From Naegleria gruberi (taxonomy: Eukaryota), in the NCBI GenBank assembly GCA_000004985.1, contig GG738860.1: a stretch of DNA of 64,000 nucleotides. One strand, written 5' to 3'. The notes under the pieces were generated by a model. It had not been told where the DNA came from and did not search any database. It saw only the letters and a list, made by a program, of their open reading frames with translations. The first letter of the stretch is position 1; each line of letters starts with the position of its first letter. Made by a program: the position numbers and the translations under genes. Positions 41,172 to 56,785 of the stretch are shown here, piece by piece.

Positions 41172-42389
41172 TTAATTAGAACCTTCTTTATTTTCAACAA
41201 CAGGTTGCTGACATGATTCAATAGCAGCCAACAAGTTTGATACATTTTCACTACTCTTTTTGAGATGTAATTGTGTTTGTTGCATATTTTGAAGGGTTCT
41301 TGTCATTCCATTACTCAATCTCATTAATTCTACATTGATATGTTCCAAAGTATTTGAGTACTTGGTGTGAATTGTTTGCTCTAATTGTTCATTTGAATGT
41401 TTCAAATCTTTCATTCTGTGTGTAACTTTAAGAATAATTTGATTAGGATTTTTCAGATCATGGCTTGGCTCTCCAGTTAGTGCCTTCTTCAACTTTTCAA
41501 CTGGCTCTGCAAGAGTAGAGGTCTGTAATTCACTCTTAAGCTTGTTGAGAACACCAGAGAAATAAGTTGAATAACTTGGAGATCCAGATGTTGGTTGAGT
41601 GTTTTGATTGTGTGGAGGTGTTTTTGGTGGTTGTGGCTCTTCATCTGATATTTCATTATTTACATTTGTTTCACCATTGGTTTTTTCCACAACAGTGGTG
41701 GTCGTTTCACTTGTTGATGTCACTACTTGAGAAGTTGTTGAAGGAGGAACAGTTGTACCTTGAGGTGGTGTCGAAGTAATAATACTAGTAGAGGTAATAG
41801 CTTGATTGGTTGTGGTTACAACAGTAGCTACATTACTCTTGAATGATTTCCAAAAGGTTGACAACTTTCTGGTGGCTCCCTCCACAAGAGCTGCACCTTG
41901 TTGGGATGCAGTAGGTGTAACTGGTGTTGCAGATTCCGAAATGGTATCTGAAATTTGTGGATTGGTAGTAATGGATGTATTGGTTGTTGTTCCTTCACTC
42001 ACGTTCGAAGCACTTGATGATGTCCTTTCGTGAGAGGCAACAGATGGCGTTGTCAATGTGGTAGCTGTGTTTGTTGTAGTAGGTTTTTGAACAGTGCTTG
42101 TTACAGTAGTGGTTACAGACAAAGATGTAGTTGTTGCAGCAGGTTGTTCTTCCTCCTCTTCCTCATCTTCTTCATCGTCTTCTCCTTCAATTTCCTGTGG
42201 TTCCTCTTCTTCCTCATCATCCTCTCCGTCCACATTTTTACCTTCATCAATTACCATAGCAACAACATTTGCTTGATTTGTTGTTGGTTCTTCAATTTCT
42301 TCTTCTTCCTCCTCTTCCGAATCTTCACCAGCAATAACTTTCACTTCCTCTTCTTCACTCATTTTTTGATTTTTATTATGTTTGATCAA
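41172..42389 (-). CDS. acidic, Thr/Ser-rich protein with C-terminal coiled-coil-like segment; unknown function
   Basis: 405-aa ORF with poly-E/D N-terminus, T/S-rich middle and helical C-terminus (LKKALTGEPSHDLKNPNQIILKVTHRMKDLKHSNEQLEQTIH). Confidence 0.4.
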   Translation of the reverse strand: MIKHNKNQKMSEEEEVKVIAGEDSEEEEEEEIEEPTTNQANVVAMVIDEGKNVDGEDDEEEEEPQEIEGEDDEEDEEEEEEQPAATTTSLSVTTTVTSTVQKPTTTNTATTLTTPSVASHERTSSSASNVSEGTTTNTSITTNPQISDTISESATPVTPTASQQGAALVEGATRKLSTFWKSFKSNVATVVTTTNQAITSTSIITSTPPQGTTVPPSTTSQVVTSTSETTTTVVEKTNGETNVNNEISDEEPQPPKTPPHNQNTQPTSGSPSYSTYFSGVLNKLKSELQTSTLAEPVEKLKKALTGEPSHDLKNPNQIILKVTHRMKDLKHSNEQLEQTIHTKYSNTLEHINVELMRLSNGMTRTLQNMQQTQLHLKKSSENVSNLLAAIESCQQPVVENKEGSN

Positions 42390-42470: not shown

Positions 42471-43057
42471 TTATTGACCTTCAAGCAAGTGCTTCTTGAC
42501 AAGAGATTGAATGTTTGATTTATCGGCAAATCCAACATGTCTGTAAACAAATTTACCACCTGGTTGAACAAAGAAGAGAGTTGGCAATGCTTCCACTCCG
42601 AGTTCTCCAGCAAGATCTGGCAAGTTATCAGAATTAATGGTAACAAGTTCAATCTTTCCATTATGTTCAGTGACTACATTTTGAAGAATTGGTCCAAGCC
42701 TATGTATTATTTAATCATTTTCAATCATTATTATTAAAATTTAATATTATTTTGAATATTAATTCATCATTAATCCACACATTCCGAATAATATCATCCG
42801 AAAAGAATCACAACATTTAATGAATATTAATTAATAAACATTAAGACTTACATTTTACATGGTCCACACCAATCAGCATAAACATCAATAATGAATGGCT
42901 TTGTAGTTTCCTTCAAATGTTTAATGAAATGATCATCATCCTTGATGGAAATAACATGTTCCGAAGTGGCAGAGGCATAGAATCTAGTTTGAAGAGATGT
43001 GATTCTCAAATTCTTAGAGGCAACTGATTTAATCAACTTGGATGATTGTCTGAGCAT
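42471..43057 (-). CDS. thioredoxin with mitochondrial-type presequence; exons 43057-42852, 42699-42471
   Basis: MLRQSSKLIKSVASKNLRITSLQTRFYASA presequence. FIIDVYADWCGPCK-M|LGPILQNVVTEHNGKIELVTINSDNLPDLAGELGVEALPTLFFVQPGGKFVYRHVGF. Intron GTAAGT...ACATAG, phase 2. Confidence 0.8.
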
Positions 43058-43398: not shown

Positions 43399-45826
43399 AT
43401 GACAGCACAATCATCAATACCTCTCAAATGGCCTTCTTTGATAGAATTTCTACCAGTTGTCTTGGTTGGAATCATCATAGAGTGGTGTTGGGCAGATAGG
43501 AGTGGATTTGCTCTGGCCCAAACTCCAGAAATCAATCAGTATTTAGGATTTAGGATCATCACTGAACAAATTAATGCTTCTTCTACAATAGTTTCGAATA
43601 TTTCATCATCATCAAATGATTCGCTAATATGTCATCCAATATTATTGAGTCAAGGTTTTAAGAGTAACTTGGGGCTGTGTGATGATTATTTTTCTTCCTA
43701 TATTGTAATGGGAACTATTCTTTCATGTTATTCTATTCTTTTGCTGATAACATTGAGTGGTCTGTTCTACAAATTGAGGAAATTAAAACAGGCTGAACAG
43801 TTCAATCATTTAAAGGTGAACTTTATCAGTGCTAGAAATCCTGTCCTTATGATTTGGGGTGCAGTAGTTGGCTGGTTGTATACCTTAATCATGTCATCGA
43901 GGGTATTGATAGGTCGTAAGATATTCCCCTGTTTTTTATTTTCTCTAATCTACTACTTGTCTGTACCTGGATTGGCCAGCACTATTATCATTAGATGTGT
44001 TAGACTTATAGCCCTAACAAAGTTGCACGAATTGAAAGTTAGGATTGGAAAACGTGAAATGCTCCAAGAGAAGGAAGAAGGAAAAATAAGTACAATTCAA
44101 ATAACGAATAATAAGGAAGTGAAACAATTTGAAAATGAAAGTAATATCCAAATTGTCATTAAAATGGCAGAATCCTTTGATAATATTATGCCACCTCCTC
44201 CAATCTATAACAAACCTCTCTCCACTGACCTCTCCAATACGACAACCACTGTGACAACAATGACAACAAATAGCCAAGAGGAGACAGACACCCACTCAAC
44301 TAGAGAGCACAATTCATTTCATAATGAAGTTTGCGAAATGAATAATCATCAAAGAAGTAATTCTGTCATATCCAATGAAGGCTTACAACCATCATCTGTG
44401 AGTACCCCAAGCACTGTAAATACTTTGGTTTCCTGTGGAATGAGTGTTTCTCCATCGAGAACCTATTCTTCAGCAAATGGTGTTCTACATCTAATACAAT
44501 CAAATGATGAAGAACCATGTCAACAACATTCTATCATTGTGGATATTACCAAATTGCACGAATTGGATCTAAGTACTCGACAAAATGAACCCAAACAAGC
44601 AGATAAATTCTATGGTAATGAATTCAGATTATCTAATGTAAATTTTGAAAATGGAAAATTGTTGAGATTGTTAAGATTTCTAACAGGATCCAAATTCATC
44701 TTGATATTTTACATTCTCATATTGGGAACTCACACATTGGTCTATTTGATTGTGGGAATTGTTGATTATTTCAATTACAAAAGTCCAGATCCAAAACTCA
44801 ACAGCATCAATAAGAAGAATGCCTTTGTGGTGGATACATACCTATTCTCCCCAAATGGTTGTGGAACTGGAAGTTACAATACTAATTACTTCCTTGGAAT
44901 GTTATCAGTGTATGCTTCATTTTCAGTCTTGTTGGCCATAGTTGCCATTGTAGTGATGAAGAAGGATGTTTGGCAAGTGAAGAGAGAAGTTGTACTAGTT
45001 GCCATTAATTGGATTCTATGTATTGCAATTTTTGGTATTCCAAATATGTTCAGTAGTATTACCACATTGTAAGTATTAAATCTCATGTGTATTAATGAAT
45101 GATAATAATACTTCGAATAATAGAGTGGATTATTACTTTCCATGGACTTCTACCATCCTCTTGTCATGTTTATCAGACATGATAATTTCCTGTACTATTC
45201 CAGTGTTCTTCCTACAGCAAGTGGACAATTCTAATAGCAAGAATAACATCAAAGAAATTGGAGACGCTGATCTACACAAGTGTTTAAAGAATCAAAAGTG
45301 GAATGGTCTCTTTTTAAAGTATTCAGAGCAGTGTTTTGCTTGTGAAGATATCATGTTTTGGAATGCTGTAGAGCAATTCAAGAGTGTTACAGCAGAGAGG
45401 CTCAAGAGAGAACTCTTCTACAACATCTACAGGACCTATATTAGAATTGGAGCACCACTAGAGTTGAATATTGCACGAAGAGAGTTTGGAATACCAGAAA
45501 TTGAAAGTCAATTTAATGTTCTATGCAAGCAAGTATCCTATCATCATGAAACTTTATCAGTTGTAGGGAAATCCAATAATAATAATAATAATAATAATCA
45601 TCAAATGGGAATGTCCAAGTCGAGATATGTAGACTTGTCCAGCAGTGAGAATATTAGTGTGAGGAGTGATATCTTTGATCAAGTACAATTAGGTTGCGAG
45701 CACAATATGAGAGACAACTTTTATAGATTTAACTTGACTCATAGTGAAATGTCTGCTAAATTGGTGCGCAGAGGGTTGGTGCATAATGATGATAATGAAG
45801 GTGTCCTGTTCAACCCGGTTGAATAA
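43399..45826 (+). CDS. seven-transmembrane protein fused to a C-terminal RGS domain (7TM-RGS); intron near 45070-45180, exact junction unresolved
   Basis: Multiple hydrophobic helices in 43399-45072. RGS core LHKCLKNQKWNGLFLKYSEQCFACEDIMFWNAVEQFKSV...LFYNIYRTYIRIGAPLELNI. GTAAGT at 45070. Confidence 0.6.
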
Positions 45827-45977: not shown

Positions 45978-46698
45978 ATGGCCAAATTCTCTTTCGCTGA
46001 CAAGCTTGTCTTCTTGTGGCTCATCATTGACTTGCTTGTGCACGGCATCTTGGAAGCCTCCTTCGTGTATTTTAGTGTAACGACCACTGTTGCAAAGGCT
46101 CAACCTACCACTGCTATTGGCAAGTGGTTGCTTTGGACATGGACAGAGTATGGTTCAAAGGCTGATTCAAAATGGTTAATCTTGGATCCATGTATTGTTT
46201 CTGTGGAATTATTGACTTGTACTTTTGACACCTTGTTGTGTGCTATTATCTTGTATACTGTATGTTGTTATTATTCATCCGAATGTGTTAATTTATTATT
46301 ATTATTATTGATTGTTAATTTGAAAATATGAAAATAATTCAATAACACGAAAAATTGTTGTAATAATCGATTATCGATTCTACATAATTCTGTGATGTAT
46401 CAAAATACTATTTGGAAATATTGATTATTAATGTAAAATATTGGAATAGATGTGGACAAACAAACCAAGCAGACACTTCTGGCAAATTGTTTTGTGTACG
46501 TGTGAGTTATATGGCGACTGGATGACTTTTGTGCCTGCTATCTTTGAAGGAGGAAGCAATTTAAATATGGATCCTTTCTACTTCTATGTTTACACTGTTG
46601 GTTCCAATGGTGTTTGGGTTATTGTGCCTATTTTAATGTTAATTCAATCATACAACTATTTGGTATCTGCTTTGTCACAAAAACAAAAGAGTAATTAA
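45978..46698 (+). CDS. emopamil-binding-protein (EBP) family sterol isomerase; exons 45978-46259, 46450-46698
   Basis: WTWTEYGSKADSKWLILDP...ELLT and RHFWQIVLCTCELYGDWMTFVPAIFEGGSNLNMDPFYFYVYTVGSNGVWVIVP (EBP signature). Intron 46260-46449, GTATGT...AATAG, phase 0. Confidence 0.7.
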
Positions 46699-49787: not shown

Positions 49788-52550
49788 ATGACACGAATTG
49801 CACCCTCAACGGATAAAGATGAAGAAATGGATGATAATCATGCATTATCAGATGAAGACTCTCAACAAGAAGAGGTAACTCCAAAAGAGAGGAAACCACC
49901 AGCCTCTATCAAGTGTCTCTTAATTGTATTGGTGGTTGTCGCTGTTGTCGCCACCGTTCTTCTTCTCACGACCATTTGGATTTCATGTTTCTCATCGAGT
50001 GTTTCATCCCTTTCTGTCTCACTCATGTCAGAACAATTTACCAAAATCATAAGTTTCACAGACTCTACTATTAAGGATGTAATAATGGTCTCTGAGAATG
50101 CAAAGAATACCATGTGGTGGGATTANNNNNNNNNNNNNNNNNNNNNNNNNNNNNNNNNNNNNNNNNNNNNNNNNNNNNNNNNNNNNNNNNNNNNNNNNNN
50201 NNNNNNNNNNNNNNNNNNNNNNNNNNNNNNNNNNNNNNNNNNNNNNNNNNNNNNNNNNNNNNNNNNNNNNNNNNNNNNNNNNNNNNNNNNNNNNNNNNNN
50301 NNNNNNNNNNNNNNNNNNNNNNNNNNNNNNNNNNNNNNNNNNNNNNNNNNNNNNNNNNNNNNNNNNNNNNNNNNNNNNNNNNNNNNNNNNNNNNNNNNNN
50401 NNNNNNNNNNNNNNNNNNNNNNNNNNNNNNNNNNNNNNNNNNNNNNNNNNNNNNNNNNNNNNNNNNNNNNNNNNNNNNNNNNNNNNNNNNNNNNNNNNNN
50501 NNNNNNNNNNNNNNNNNNNNNNNNNNNNNNNNNNNNNNNNNNNNNNNNNNNNNNNNNNNNNNNNNNNNNNNNNNNNNNNNNNNNNNNNNNNNNNNNNNNN
50601 NNNNNNNNNNNNNNNNNNNNNNNNCTGCTTCAAATGAGACTGATATATCGGGGATCAACTTTGATTGGTACTTTGGATTTGATATTTCTGTTGCAACTAT
50701 TAGTAATTATCTAAAAGATATAACTGAAAAAATCACTGGATCTTTGGCTTTTATCATTGAAATTGAGACAGAATTTATTGTTGCCTCAAGTTATCCAGAG
50801 ATTCCCGTGACCAAATGGGATGATAAAGGAAATCAAGAAAGAAAGAAGGCTATCAATTTTGGAGTACCAGAAGTTGAGCAAGTTGGTCTATTCCTCTATG
50901 AAAGATATCAGAAAAAGTTGGATTCATTAAGTTGTGGAACTTTTGAGTTTTTATCATTTCAGGATAGATATGTTAATGTGTATAGAATGTGCAATCAAGC
51001 CAACATTAATTGGTAAGTATCCTGTAAATATTAATTACTGACCGGTGGAAAAGGTTATTTGTATTCTCAGTTCCTCAATGGAACTATCTAGGAACCATGA
51101 TTATCGCCATAATTGCAGCTCTTTCTTCATCTATTGTAATTGTCATTGTTGGTCTCTTATTTGGGGTATATTCCTCCTTCAAGATTGTAAAGCCGTTCCA
51201 TAATTTAATAGATTTATTTGCAAGTGTTTCAAACATGGATTTGGATAATATCATTGTTCTTCCATCTCCTTTCAGAGAAGTTCATCAATTACAATTACAC
51301 TTCAAAACTATGGTTGTTAAGATTAAACAATATCGATGCTTTATTCCTCCTCACTTACTAGCTCAAATTGATGCCGAAGGAGCTGGTGATGAAAATGATA
51401 GGGATTTTGAAAAACCTTCCATTAGAGCCGCCAAGGATCACAATACAACACAATCTTCTCTGAGAAGTGGGAAATCTTCGAGACATTCTGGAATTTCACG
51501 TTCAGGAAATGCAACATCAAATTATCATTCAACCTCCAACCAATCATCATTCCGTCCCGTCTCCAAATCACTTTTCAAATTGGGGCTTGAAAAGAAGAAG
51601 ATTACAGTGGCCAACTTTTATTTTGTGGGATTGGACTATTGTATGGAAAATTTATCAGACTCAGAGCTTGTAACAGTAATGTCAGATTATTTCGAAGTCA
51701 TTCAAAAAGTTGCCAAACTCACTCTAGGACAATTGGGTTCTTTTGAGGATAATTCAATGACCATCAGCTGGAATTCAACATCAGAAGTTTCCAATCATGA
51801 AGAGAAGGGTGTTGCCTCCTCTCATCAAATCCTCCTTAAACTTTCACAATTGAAAGAAACTAAATGGAAAAAGAAGGAACATTTAGTTAAGAAAGATTTA
51901 TTACAAAACGTTGATTTTAGAGCTTCAATTTTAACACAAGTTTGTAGATGTGGTAATTTAGGTATGTTTAATTGATTGAAATTTAGTCTAATTTACATTA
52001 TTAGGTACGCAAGAAATTAAAACCTACTCAATTGTTGGAAGTTATCTTCACAATTTACACAAGATTATGAAACATGGTTTGAAGTTGAATGTCAAATTGA
52101 TTGCTTCTGAGGAAACTTTGTTTAAATCGAATGATACTCACCAACATAGATTGGTGGGAGTGAAGAAGGTTCTTTCTCCAGATGAAACAAGCGCAGAATT
52201 CTTCTCTGACTCTCAAAAGGTAAATAAGAGAAAGATTAAATTATTTGAGATTGGAGAAACTAATCAAGTCAATGAGGATGGTAAGTTTATTTTACAATTT
52301 CTTTGAAATTTTTAAACGAACACAATCAGAGTGGATGTATGAATTACAACAACATAAATCAAAGGAAAAATGGAAACTCTACAATGAAGCCTGTCTATTA
52401 ATGGAAGAGGAAAAGTATGAAGATGCCATTACTAGTTTCGAATCCTACTTGTTATCATATAGAGCAGAAACCAATGAAGATATATGTGCTTGTTATATGA
52501 TTAAGAAATGTTACAAATTGCTGCAAAACAAAGCTAACCAAAACAATTGA
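49788..52550 (+). CDS. two-TM receptor with extracellular Cache-like sensor, HAMP-like linker and a degenerate (likely inactive) class III cyclase-homology domain plus helical C-terminus; 5 exons, interrupted by assembly gap
   Basis: TM1 LLIVLVVVAVVATVLLLTTIW. Sensor ITGSLAFIIEIETEFIVASSYPE. TM2 IIAIIAALSSSIVIVIVGLLFGVY. KITVANFYFVGLDYCMENLSDSELVTVMSDYFEVIQKVAKLTLGQLGSFEDNSMTISWN parallels cyclase VTVLFSDIVGFTSL...YFT...IE..GGTV.KFIGDAVMAVFG with both metal Asp replaced. Introns 51976-52018 and 52272-52331 verified in frame. The 51017-51095 junction is not in frame. Confidence 0.5.
50126..50624. other. assembly gap (499 N)
   Basis: Run of N inside the CDS above. Confidence 1.
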
Positions 52551-55183: not shown

Positions 55184-56785
55184 ATGTTGTCAGCCCTCTC
55201 ACAAAATATTCTTTCTAGTAGTACTGGTTCAAATGGGAAAAGCCTTTCCGATGTGTTGAAGAATGATAGGGAATCACTGTTGAAGAATCCGATCCAACTT
55301 ATTCAGCTAATTCATCACGAAATTGATCACATGGTTGAAAAATCAAGGAAAATTGAAGGAGAGTTGAGTACTCACTTTTTGAATAAGGATTCAAGCATGT
55401 TTGTTAAAAAGGAAGATGATGATAAGAATTCTTCATCACCAATTACAATGATTTCACAATTTGTGGAAAAGTTGAATGGTTCTGAGGGTGGAGTCTTGGC
55501 AAGCTTTCCAATTAATACTGAGCTTGTTGAAAAATTCAAAGGATCTTCTGATATATTACTGAAGGCCTTTGATACTATCAAGGATCATTTGGGAGATGGT
55601 TCACTTGTTTCAGGTGGGTGTATGTTTAGTATTGTTGCATGTTGTGTTGCTGCCATGTTGGAAGAAATTGAAAATAATGCAAAGGAAGAATGGCAGAAAC
55701 TCTATTCAGAAGCAAAGGAAACTATTGATGAATTCAAACAAAAGATTTCATCTACACTAGTGGAAACTATTGCCAAGTTGAAGGAAATTGGAACTGAAAC
55801 ATTGAATGAAATCAAACGATCCATTCAAAAAGGTTGTGAGTTGGCCTCAAGTTTCCCTAAGGAAGTTAGAGAAGAAATTGAGAATATTGCAAAGAGACAT
55901 TTGGAAGAGTTCAAGAATGTCACCAATCTCATGAAACACTTGAAGGAAAAGAACTTTTTAACAAATCAATTCGAACAATTCCATCAAGAGTTCAAGGCTC
56001 TTGTCACTAGTTTTGCCGACAGATTTATCAAGGAATTATTAGGAAATATTATTGGAACCATTGTCAAATTTTTTAAATCTATTGCTCAAGTCTTTAGAGG
56101 TTTGATTAAGGAATCTTTTGGAATTATTATTGAAATTGTGAAAAAGATCTTTGAATTTGTCAAGTCAGCCCCAGAGAGATTGAGAAAGATATTTGACTTT
56201 TCAGGAAATTGTATGGCCATGCTATGTTTATCTGCTCCACAGGAGATGATTGATAAGGCAGCCAATGAAGCAACCAATTTAATGAACATGATTCCAGTCG
56301 ATAAGATTATTTCACCACTCGAAGAANNNNNNNNNNNNNNNNNNNNNNNNNNNNNNNNNNNNNNNNNNNNNNNNNNNNNNNNNNNNNNNNNNNNNNNNNN
56401 NNNNNNNNNNNNNNNNNNNNNNNNNNNNNNNNNNNNNNNNNNNNNNNNNNNNNNNNNNNNNNNNNNNNNNNNNNNNNNNNNNNNNNNNNNNNNNNNNNNN
56501 NNNNNNNNNNNNNNNNNNTTCAACTCTATTGTAGCTCAAGCAGAGGAAAAGATGGAAGGAATTGAAAAACTTACTCCTCTCTTTGAAGAACAACTCCATC
56601 TCTTCTCTCAATTTGATTCTGATTTAGATCATGTCAAAGTTCTTGTGGCCGAAATTGAAGAAAAGGGAATGAATCTTGTTGGAGATAAACTTGACAAGGT
56701 TTTAGAAAAGGTTTCAGATGTATTACACATACCAAAACTTGGAGGAGAATCATCACCACTTGCTGGTATTAAAAAGTTGTTCTAA
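55184..56785 (+). CDS. alpha-helical repeat/coiled-coil protein of unknown function (interrupted by 192-N gap)
   Basis: 533-aa ORF with heptad-like EEIENIAKRHLEEFKNV, IAKLKEIGTETLNEIKRSIQ. Confidence 0.4.
   Translation: MLSALSQNILSSSTGSNGKSLSDVLKNDRESLLKNPIQLIQLIHHEIDHMVEKSRKIEGELSTHFLNKDSSMFVKKEDDDKNSSSPITMISQFVEKLNGSEGGVLASFPINTELVEKFKGSSDILLKAFDTIKDHLGDGSLVSGGCMFSIVACCVAAMLEEIENNAKEEWQKLYSEAKETIDEFKQKISSTLVETIAKLKEIGTETLNEIKRSIQKGCELASSFPKEVREEIENIAKRHLEEFKNVTNLMKHLKEKNFLTNQFEQFHQEFKALVTSFADRFIKELLGNIIGTIVKFFKSIAQVFRGLIKESFGIIIEIVKKIFEFVKSAPERLRKIFDFSGNCMAMLCLSAPQEMIDKAANEATNLMNMIPVDKIISPLEEXXXXXXXXXXXXXXXXXXXXXXXXXXXXXXXXXXXXXXXXXXXXXXXXXXXXXXXXXXXXXXXXFNSIVAQAEEKMEGIEKLTPLFEEQLHLFSQFDSDLDHVKVLVAEIEEKGMNLVGDKLDKVLEKVSDVLHIPKLGGESSPLAGIKKLF
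56327..56518. other. assembly gap (192 N)
   Basis: Run of N. Confidence 1.

Follow-up and report, generated by a model that had tools for sequence, protein, structure and literature searches.

Does the segment between positions 43399 and 45826 of a 64,000-nucleotide stretch of Naegleria gruberi DNA (contig GG738860.1 of assembly GCA_000004985.1; the whole stretch is called the window throughout) hold one gene or two? Two open reading frames (ORFs) succeed each other here on the + strand in different frames, the first running from an ATG at 43399 to a TAA at 45070-45072 and the second ending at 45826; the first-pass annotation, made from the letters of the DNA, had read them as the fusion of a seven-transmembrane (7TM) receptor-like domain with a regulator of G-protein signalling (RGS) box. 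We put at roughly 85% the probability that locus 43399-45826 is one two-exon gene encoding a 7TM-RGS protein of 790 amino acids (aa), acting as a membrane-anchored GTPase-activating protein (GAP) for heterotrimeric G-alpha subunits. The gene is one more, previously mis-modelled paralog of a large, already described family of Naegleria receptor-like GAPs; the new point is the correction of its gene model, as the public entry NAEGRDRAFT_66080 misses an intron of 55 nucleotides (nt) and should be extended over it to take in the seventh transmembrane helix (TM7) and the RGS box.

A Single Reading Frame across the Predicted Intron

The ORF listing, combined with a reconstruction of the splice, places the start ATG at 43399 and the stop codon at 45824-45826. 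The first ORF closes with the codons ACC ACA TTG TAA, and a GTAAGT at 45069-45074 opens with the G of this TTG and the TAA after it; the first-pass annotation had placed this donor at 45070 and had seen no way of closing the intron in frame with a canonical acceptor, leaving the exact sequence of TM7 uncertain. A donor GT at 45069-70 and an acceptor AG at 45122-23 do close it in frame, with a Leu codon split as TT/A, and TM7 (aa 566-587, in exon 2) is therefore not uncertain. The predicted spliced junction, ...ACCACATT/AGTGGATTAT..., is 55 nt shorter than the genomic DNA, and the spliced product would read ...SSITTL-VDYYFPWTSTILLSCLSDMIISCTIPVFFL... (over a longer stretch, ...NMFSSITTL-VDYYFPWTSTILLSCLSDMIISCTIPVFFLQQ...). 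An alternative acceptor AG at 45124-45125 was rejected, being out of frame and in conflict with the gap-free alignment of the paralogs.

The continuity of the frame is indicated by the relatives of the gene. Five paralogs annotated in N. gruberi and N. lovaniensis, which carry Pfam RGS matches, are uninterrupted at the junction and align without gaps to 'SSITTL/VDYYFPW'; an ortholog on a Logan contig (L002; 75% identical) shows GTAAGT...AATAG at exactly this codon position, with an intron of 47 nt vs 55 nt in the window, its interior being unalignable and both its flanks conserved; a metagenomic copy (L001; 99% identical) likewise has the 55-nt intron, with 2 substitutions. The gene order around L002 matches that of the window and comprises a DRG-type GTPase, a thioredoxin, the 7TM-RGS gene and a gene resembling emopamil-binding protein (EBP). 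Between the window and L002, the ratio of nonsynonymous to synonymous substitution rates (dN/dS) is 0.24 overall and 0.23 in exon 2 as a whole; by part, it is 0.10-0.12 in TM1-6, 0.014 in TM7, and 0.20 and 0.25 in the two halves of the RGS box. Because the ratio is low in each exon, both are coding, in the frames that the splice implies; both are under purifying selection. A reading of the locus as a pseudogene was rejected in view of the paralog alignment, the intron of the ortholog and the dN/dS values. The in-frame splice, the continuous paralogs and the conserved position of the intron place both domains, as predicted from sequence, on one polypeptide.

The Public Gene Model

Exon 1 is identical to the public 'predicted protein' NAEGRDRAFT_66080 (EFC46058.1 / XP_002678802.1, 557 aa, on a scaffold of 536,960 bp), apart from the read-through 'L*' of that model, which is truncated because the intron has been read through to the TAA that it contains; the model has no Pfam domain and comprises six of the seven helices, without TM7 and the RGS box. 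Two ORFs in the neighbourhood are exact N. gruberi proteins too. The second ORF, which holds the RGS exon, has no entry in the protein collection, and a search of 5.8 billion clusters with the full-length query gave no high-identity protein over aa 558-790; it follows that the RGS exon lacks an annotation and, as the public model does not contain it, the gene would be missed as a 7TM-RGS gene in proteome surveys.

The same truncation apparently recurs among the relatives of the gene. Nine of them (P0001, P0002, P0012, P0016, P0019, P0024, P0049, P0055 and P0058), raw-ORF calls made for the most part on metagenomic and Logan contigs, stop without exception at the alignment position of the window's intron, with ...TTL or ...xL; these shared endpoints suggest that a conserved TT/GTAAGT intron has been read through, with a systematic truncation of the subfamily in protein databases. 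With at least nine related ORF-called public proteins cut short in this way, surveys of heterolobosean proteomes are likely to underestimate the number of 7TM-RGS proteins.

The Membrane Domain and Its Possible Relation to Class C Receptors

Kyte-Doolittle hydropathy reveals a signal-like segment close to the N-terminus (aa 14-32), followed by seven transmembrane (TM) segments, which map one-to-one onto the seven helices of an AlphaFold2 model of the N. gruberi paralog P0003, built from a 73-sequence alignment of the family (mean predicted local distance difference test score, pLDDT, 81.8; predicted template modelling score, pTM, 0.80). In the model, the seven helices adopt a fold like the one that a G-protein-coupled receptor (GPCR) has, with the N-terminus outside and the C-terminus inside. 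By its predicted features, the N-terminus is indeed built for an outward orientation, as it combines the signal-like segment, a probable signal peptide or signal anchor, with three N-glycosylation sequons (aa 59, 67 and 73) and two invariant Cys residues (C78 and C94), the ectodomain extending for ~65 aa beyond the signal segment. A disulfide probably joins C178 to C488 in the second extracellular loop (ECL2), as their invariance and the precedent of GPCRs indicate.

The long cytoplasmic loop sits between TM3 and TM4 and is therefore the second intracellular loop (ICL2). As a whole it covers aa ~208-424, with a disordered length of ~175-215 aa; its Ser+Thr content is 21%, rising to 33-38% over aa 270-375, vs 16% for the whole protein, and its identity to the ortholog is 64%, compared with 87-90% for the TM core. 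The third intracellular loop (ICL3), which follows TM5, is short and nearly invariant (KKDVWxVKxE, aa 520-530), and the linker from TM7 to the RGS box is 18 aa long. The seven-helix receptor-like domain and the long Ser/Thr-rich cytoplasmic loop of the first-pass annotation are thus both recovered, the former by hydropathy and by mapping to the P0003 model and the latter as an ICL2 that is disordered in that model.

The protein belongs by full-length similarity (E=1e-106 to 1e-149 to N. gruberi and N. lovaniensis proteins) to a heterolobosean (Naegleria/Willaertia) 7TM-RGS family, characterized by the motifs CHP...GLCDD, IGRKxxPC, GCG, KKDxWxxKxE and DYYxP, in which 59 of 73 long members have a Pfam RGS match. 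When 1.84 billion representatives were searched with a profile restricted to the 7TM domain, 133 proteins were retrieved, of which 27 lay at <1e-30; all those named, which are a sample of the 133, belong to N. gruberi, N. lovaniensis or Willaertia magna. Two N. lovaniensis paralogs, P0004 and P0005, have adjacent locus tags (C9374_002444 and C9374_002445) on one contig, and tandem duplication is therefore one route by which the family has expanded.

As for the receptor class, the window protein gives no match to Pfam 7tm_3 (PF00003) at E<=1 and thus does not attain the class C gathering score; a distant member of the family, P0119, passes it (E=2.2e-10, 41.1 bits vs 33.5), and the P0119 group aligns with the window subfamily from TM1 to TM7 (hhalign E=1e-41). 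Among PDB sequences, the 7TM-domain profile retrieved nothing at E<=10 and the P0119-group profile retrieved RGS domains only. The modelled 7TM fold suggests that the domain is closest to the transmembrane domains of class C GPCRs (mGlu, GABA-B, GPR158, GPR156, GPRC5D), i.e., class-C-like. A large class C ligand-binding ectodomain (Venus flytrap or Cys-rich) is not present, the ectodomain of ~65 aa having no Pfam match; such an ectodomain is likewise missing in some class C orphans (GPRC5, GPR156).

The RGS Box

The clear RGS box announced by the first-pass annotation stands: Pfam PF00615 matches aa 607-675 (E=1.8e-8, 35.2 bits vs a cut-off of 23.9; profile positions 2-70 of 117), and its location on the C-terminal side of TM7 is supported by Pfam, by the matches to PDB sequences and by the fold in the P0003 model. 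The phmmer alignments to RGS7, RGS6 and RGS16 in the PDB place FACEDIMFW on FSSENLRFW and GAPLELNI on GAPSAINL; because FACED and LELNI fall in this way on the 'SEEN' motif and on the 'ELNI' loop, the Glu of the former and the Asn of the latter are kept, and both are conserved in all paralogs. In the numbering of RGS4 they correspond to Glu87 and Asn128.

The part matched by Pfam is separated from the last helices, which read IFDQVQLGCEHNMRDNFYRF, by a fast-evolving poly-Asn insert (49% identity to the ortholog), whose counterpart in the P0003 model is a disordered stretch between helix 538-560 and helices 594-623. A Foldseek search with the RGS domain of the P0003 model returned RGS16, RGS8, RGS4 and RGS1 at probability 1.0, with target TM-scores of 0.7-0.79. 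By sequence and model alike, the C-terminus is predicted to lie in the cytoplasm and to bear an RGS box that is complete.

Proposed Mechanism and Alternative Explanations

The mechanism of AtRGS1 has been described (PMC3386157, PMC3865004). By analogy with AtRGS1 and with 7TM RGS2-4 of N. fowleri, the RGS box of the window protein would bind the transition state of one or more Naegleria G-alpha subunits and speed the hydrolysis of GTP, and nearby G-alpha, including the 'self-activating' subunits that exchange nucleotide fast, would be kept in the GDP state; the 7TM domain would place this GAP activity at the membrane and would probably allow a cue, extracellular or in the membrane, to act on it. 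It may be speculated that ICL2 is a region of phosphorylation and adaptor binding controlling removal of the protein from the membrane, comparable to the phosphorylated C-terminal tail of AtRGS1, and that the invariant short ICL3 contacts G-alpha or the RGS box. A six-frame motif scan of the 64-kb window found no G-alpha gene.

Some points weigh against this picture of a one-gene receptor-like GAP. Ligands, kinases or adaptors have been described for none of the 7TM-RGS proteins of Naegleria; the 45069-45123 splice is strongly inferred, not observed; the modelled protein is P0003, a paralog of 43% identity from which the structural elements have been mapped onto the window protein. The equivalent of RGS4 Asn88 is an Asp (FACED), and given this Asp and the insert of ~40 aa, GAP activity or G-alpha selectivity could differ from that of other RGS domains. 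Moreover, some RGS domains are scaffolds and not GAPs (PMC3971589, which cites Anantharaman 2011).

A different role for the same polypeptide, which we consider improbable, is that of a true GPCR, whose class-C-like 7TM domain would be the exchange factor for G-alpha while the tethered RGS box would only shorten its own signal. Class C receptors couple to G proteins via ICL2 and ICL3, and a fold predicted to be closest to theirs, with a short, invariant ICL3 and a long ICL2, would suit such a role; a self-limiting receptor of this kind has also been proposed for the fungal class VI receptors of the GprK type, and slow-exchanging as well as self-activating G-alpha subunits of Naegleria engage 7TM-RGS proteins (PMC9283941). 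Exchange-factor activity, however, has been shown for no 7TM-RGS protein, whereas AtRGS1, the Trichomonas RGS protein and N. fowleri 7TM RGS2-4 act as GAPs (PMC3865004, PMC9283941), and sequence cannot separate the one mode from the other. Somewhat less probable still is an RGS box devoid of catalysis, i.e., a G-alpha-binding or scaffolding module that would make the protein an anchor or an effector for active G-alpha: loss of GAP activity is documented in some RGS domains (PMC3971589), and the Asp at the Asn88 position and the interruption of the box by a fast-evolving insert could be taken as its signs. Yet all paralogs keep the key Glu and the Asn of the catalytic loop, purifying selection acts on both halves of the box, and AtRGS1 is an active GAP although it, too, has a residue other than Asn where RGS4 has Asn88; the plant RGS1 consensus there is AGES/AGET. 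Every paralog also retains, in the last helices, an Asp and an Arg that map to positions of RGS4.

The question from which we started, whether two genes should be recognized here, can be answered with greater firmness. They would be a gene for a membrane protein with six TM segments (the 557-aa model) and a gene for a small RGS protein starting at ATG 45095, as might be read from the public annotation, which ends at 45072, and from the ORF 45095-45826, which has an ATG of its own. This ATG, however, lies inside the segment that differs by 8 nt in length from the ortholog (55 vs 47) between conserved flanks, the paralogs run continuously over the junction, and exon 2 opens with TM7, the most conserved of the helices (dN/dS 0.014). 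One of the products, an RGS protein bearing one orphan TM helix, would match no database protein when taken as a stand-alone product, and the other would be a six-helix bundle deprived of TM7. Because exon 2 supplies TM7, exon 1 alone encoding six of the seven helices, a separate RGS transcript is very unlikely, and of all the explanations considered here that of two genes deserves the least credence.

Feature Coordinates and Neighbouring Genes

Table 1: Predicted features of the 7TM-RGS gene, with positions in the window and residues of the 790-aa product.
Feature	Position	Strand	Residues	Remarks and basis
Exon 1	43399..45068	+	aa 1-556 plus 2 nt	Starts at the ATG and closes with two bases of a Leu codon; holds signal peptide, ectodomain, TM1-TM6 and long ICL2 (ORF listing and splice reconstruction)
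Intron	45069..45123	+		55 nt, GTAAGT...AATAG, phase 2, in ECL3 (the extracellular loop that links TM6 to TM7)
Exon 2	45124..45826	+	one Leu-codon base, then aa 558-790 and stop	TM7, linker, RGS box
Hydrophobic N-terminal segment	43438..43494	+	aa 14-32	LIEFLPVVLVGIIIEWCWA; Kyte-Doolittle peak 2.02; conserved in L002
Ectodomain motif	43615..43689	+	aa 73-97	NDSxxCHPxLLxxGxxSxxGLCDD; invariant columns in two alignments
TM1	43690..43800	+	aa 98-134	Includes a basic cytoplasmic extension; hydropathy and P0003 model (helix H28-64)
TM2	43840..43911	+	aa 148-171	Hydropathy and P0003 model
TM3 with long cytoplasmic helical extension	43930..44118	+	aa 178-240	Starts at the invariant Pro-Cys (P177, C178)
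ICL2, disordered Ser/Thr/Asn-rich core	44119..44637	+	aa 241-413	pLDDT <50 in the equivalent P0003 region
TM4 with cytoplasmic helical extension	44638..44784	+	aa 414-462	Hydropathy and P0003 model
ECL2 hairpin	44785..44871	+		Invariant G-C-G (C488); alignment and P0003 model
TM5	44872..44949	+	aa 492-517	Hydropathy, alignment and model mapping
TM6	44977..45045	+	aa 527-549	Hydropathy and P0003 model
TM7	45149..45214	+	aa 566-587	STILLSCLSDMIISCTIPVFFL; exon 2; hydropathy and P0003 model
RGS box, N-terminal part	45269..45550	+	aa 606-699	Includes FLKYSEQCFACEDIMFW and GAPLELNI
Poly-Asn low-complexity insert in the RGS box	45551..45676	+	aa 700-741	~40 aa, between the Pfam-matched part and the last helices
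RGS box, C-terminal helices	45677..45805	+	aa 742-784	...QVQLGCEHNMRDNFYRF...; conserved in all paralogs; model helices H594-623

Immediately upstream of the 7TM-RGS gene, on the - strand, is a thioredoxin gene (~42471-43057), apparently composed of two exons (ORFs 42848-43057 and 42471-42623); a thioredoxin neighbour (Pfam PF00085) is also found in L001 and L002. Downstream, on the + strand, 45978-46698 likely encodes an EBP-type membrane protein, the syntenic gene of L002 having Pfam PF05241; it is apparently split by a GTATGT...AATAG intron at ~46261-46449. Farther upstream, a 405-aa ORF on the - strand (41172-42389), in which long runs of poly-Glu/Asp alternate with others rich in Thr/Ser, is unmatched in Pfam; so is the ORF of similar length at the syntenic place in L002 (3246-4427, - strand). 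Assembly gaps (runs of N) occupy ~50170-50625 and ~56370-56520, and the overlapping ORFs over 50028-51016 are artefacts of the first of them.

Comparison with Known 7TM-RGS Systems

The first-pass annotation had held the 7TM-RGS architecture to be rare outside plants and some protists, a view which the published surveys contradict: 28 7TM-RGS genes, besides 79 other RGS genes, have been counted in N. fowleri (Bosch, Jeck & Siderovski 2022, PMC9283941), and such architectures are known from chytrids, filastereans, ichthyosporeans and a large number of bikonts (PMC3971589), the class VI GPCRs of ascomycetes having the same layout (PMC10794492). For N. gruberi, the tally of RGS proteins stands at 229 (de Mendoza et al. 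2014, PMC3971589) and that of G-alpha genes reportedly at ~44 (PMC8584482), and 7TM-RGS proteins are among the most expanded signalling modules of this species. The isolated RGS domains of N. fowleri 7TM RGS2-4 accelerate GTP hydrolysis on G-alpha 2, 3, 5 and 7 of the same species, two of which are self-activating (PMC9283941).

Within the genus, the N. gruberi and N. lovaniensis paralogs P0003-P0007, annotated as 'RGS domain-containing', have the same architecture as the window protein (36-44% identity over the full length) and share its ectodomain, ICL3 and RGS motifs; the window protein and its close orthologs differ from them by the extra N-terminal signal segment, by the poly-Asn insert in the RGS box and by the length of ICL2 (~215 aa vs ~100 aa in P0003-P0007). 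N. fowleri 7TM RGS1-4 possess EGF, lectin and GPS ectodomains, which the window protein does not have.

The comparison with plants is that which the first-pass annotation had drawn in calling the architecture AtRGS1-type; the arrangement agrees, as apparently does the class of fold, but sequence homology between the 7TM domains is not demonstrable. In AtRGS1 and in the window protein alike, a cytoplasmic RGS box comes after seven TM helices. For the comparison, a set of plant RGS1 sequences was gathered with a bait sequence, which matched database RGS1 entries at 93-100% identity. The alignment of the Naegleria family with that of plant RGS1 (hhalign probability 97.8%, E=1.3e-12) indicates homologous RGS boxes, from which its score mainly derives, and runs in register through TM5-TM7; with the 7TM domains alone, hhalign gave E=0.11-0.19 and a probability <1% in local, low-mact and global modes, and no plant protein appeared among the 7TM-profile matches that were checked for a name. 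As to the fold, the 7TM domain of the AtRGS1 AlphaFold model has been found closest to mGlu1 (Lou et al. 2024, PMC11580166), and a plant RGS1 from Carya matches 7tm_3 over its full length, below threshold (E=2.8e-6). About one-sixth of the plant RGS1 proteins listed have a precomputed Pfam 7tm_3 match (e.g., P0163, P0185, P0192 and P0234); on re-scanning, one such match was confirmed, that of Carya, below the gathering score. AtRGS1 and the window protein thus share architecture, RGS homology and, apparently, fold class, which does not demonstrate that their fusions go back to a common ancestor.

Differences from the plant protein are evident too. Plants have one RGS1 and Naegleria has dozens of 7TM-RGS genes; AtRGS1 has short loops and a cluster of phosphorylated Ser residues in its C-terminal tail, whereas the window protein has a short, Ser-poor tail and a Ser/Thr-rich ICL2. 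A bolder reading, which we hold to be unlikely, is that the fusion of a class-C-like 7TM domain to an RGS box was a single ancient invention, common to heteroloboseans and plants and close to the root of the eukaryotes, as opposed to several fusions made independently, and that in this Naegleria subfamily the phospho-switch moved from the C-terminal tail to the ICL2 of ~200 aa; were it true, the protein would be a receptor-GAP whose residence in the membrane is set by phosphorylation of ICL2.

The class VI GPCRs of fungi (GprK, GprR, MoRgs7) also join a 7TM domain to a cytoplasmic RGS box, as the window protein does; they belong to a different lineage and are likened to it by architecture, no fungal protein having been found among the 133 matches of the 7TM profile, of which a sample was named. 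GAP activity has been reported for class VI members of Aspergillus oryzae (PMC10794492), and cue-dependent endocytosis and phosphorylation have been reported for MoRgs7 (PMC10184898). For the class-C-like 7TM domain, GPR158-RGS7 provides a functional parallel; this parallel, together with a class-C-like fold common to AtRGS1 and apparently to the window protein, makes a small comparative point on the origin of GAP-based control of G proteins.

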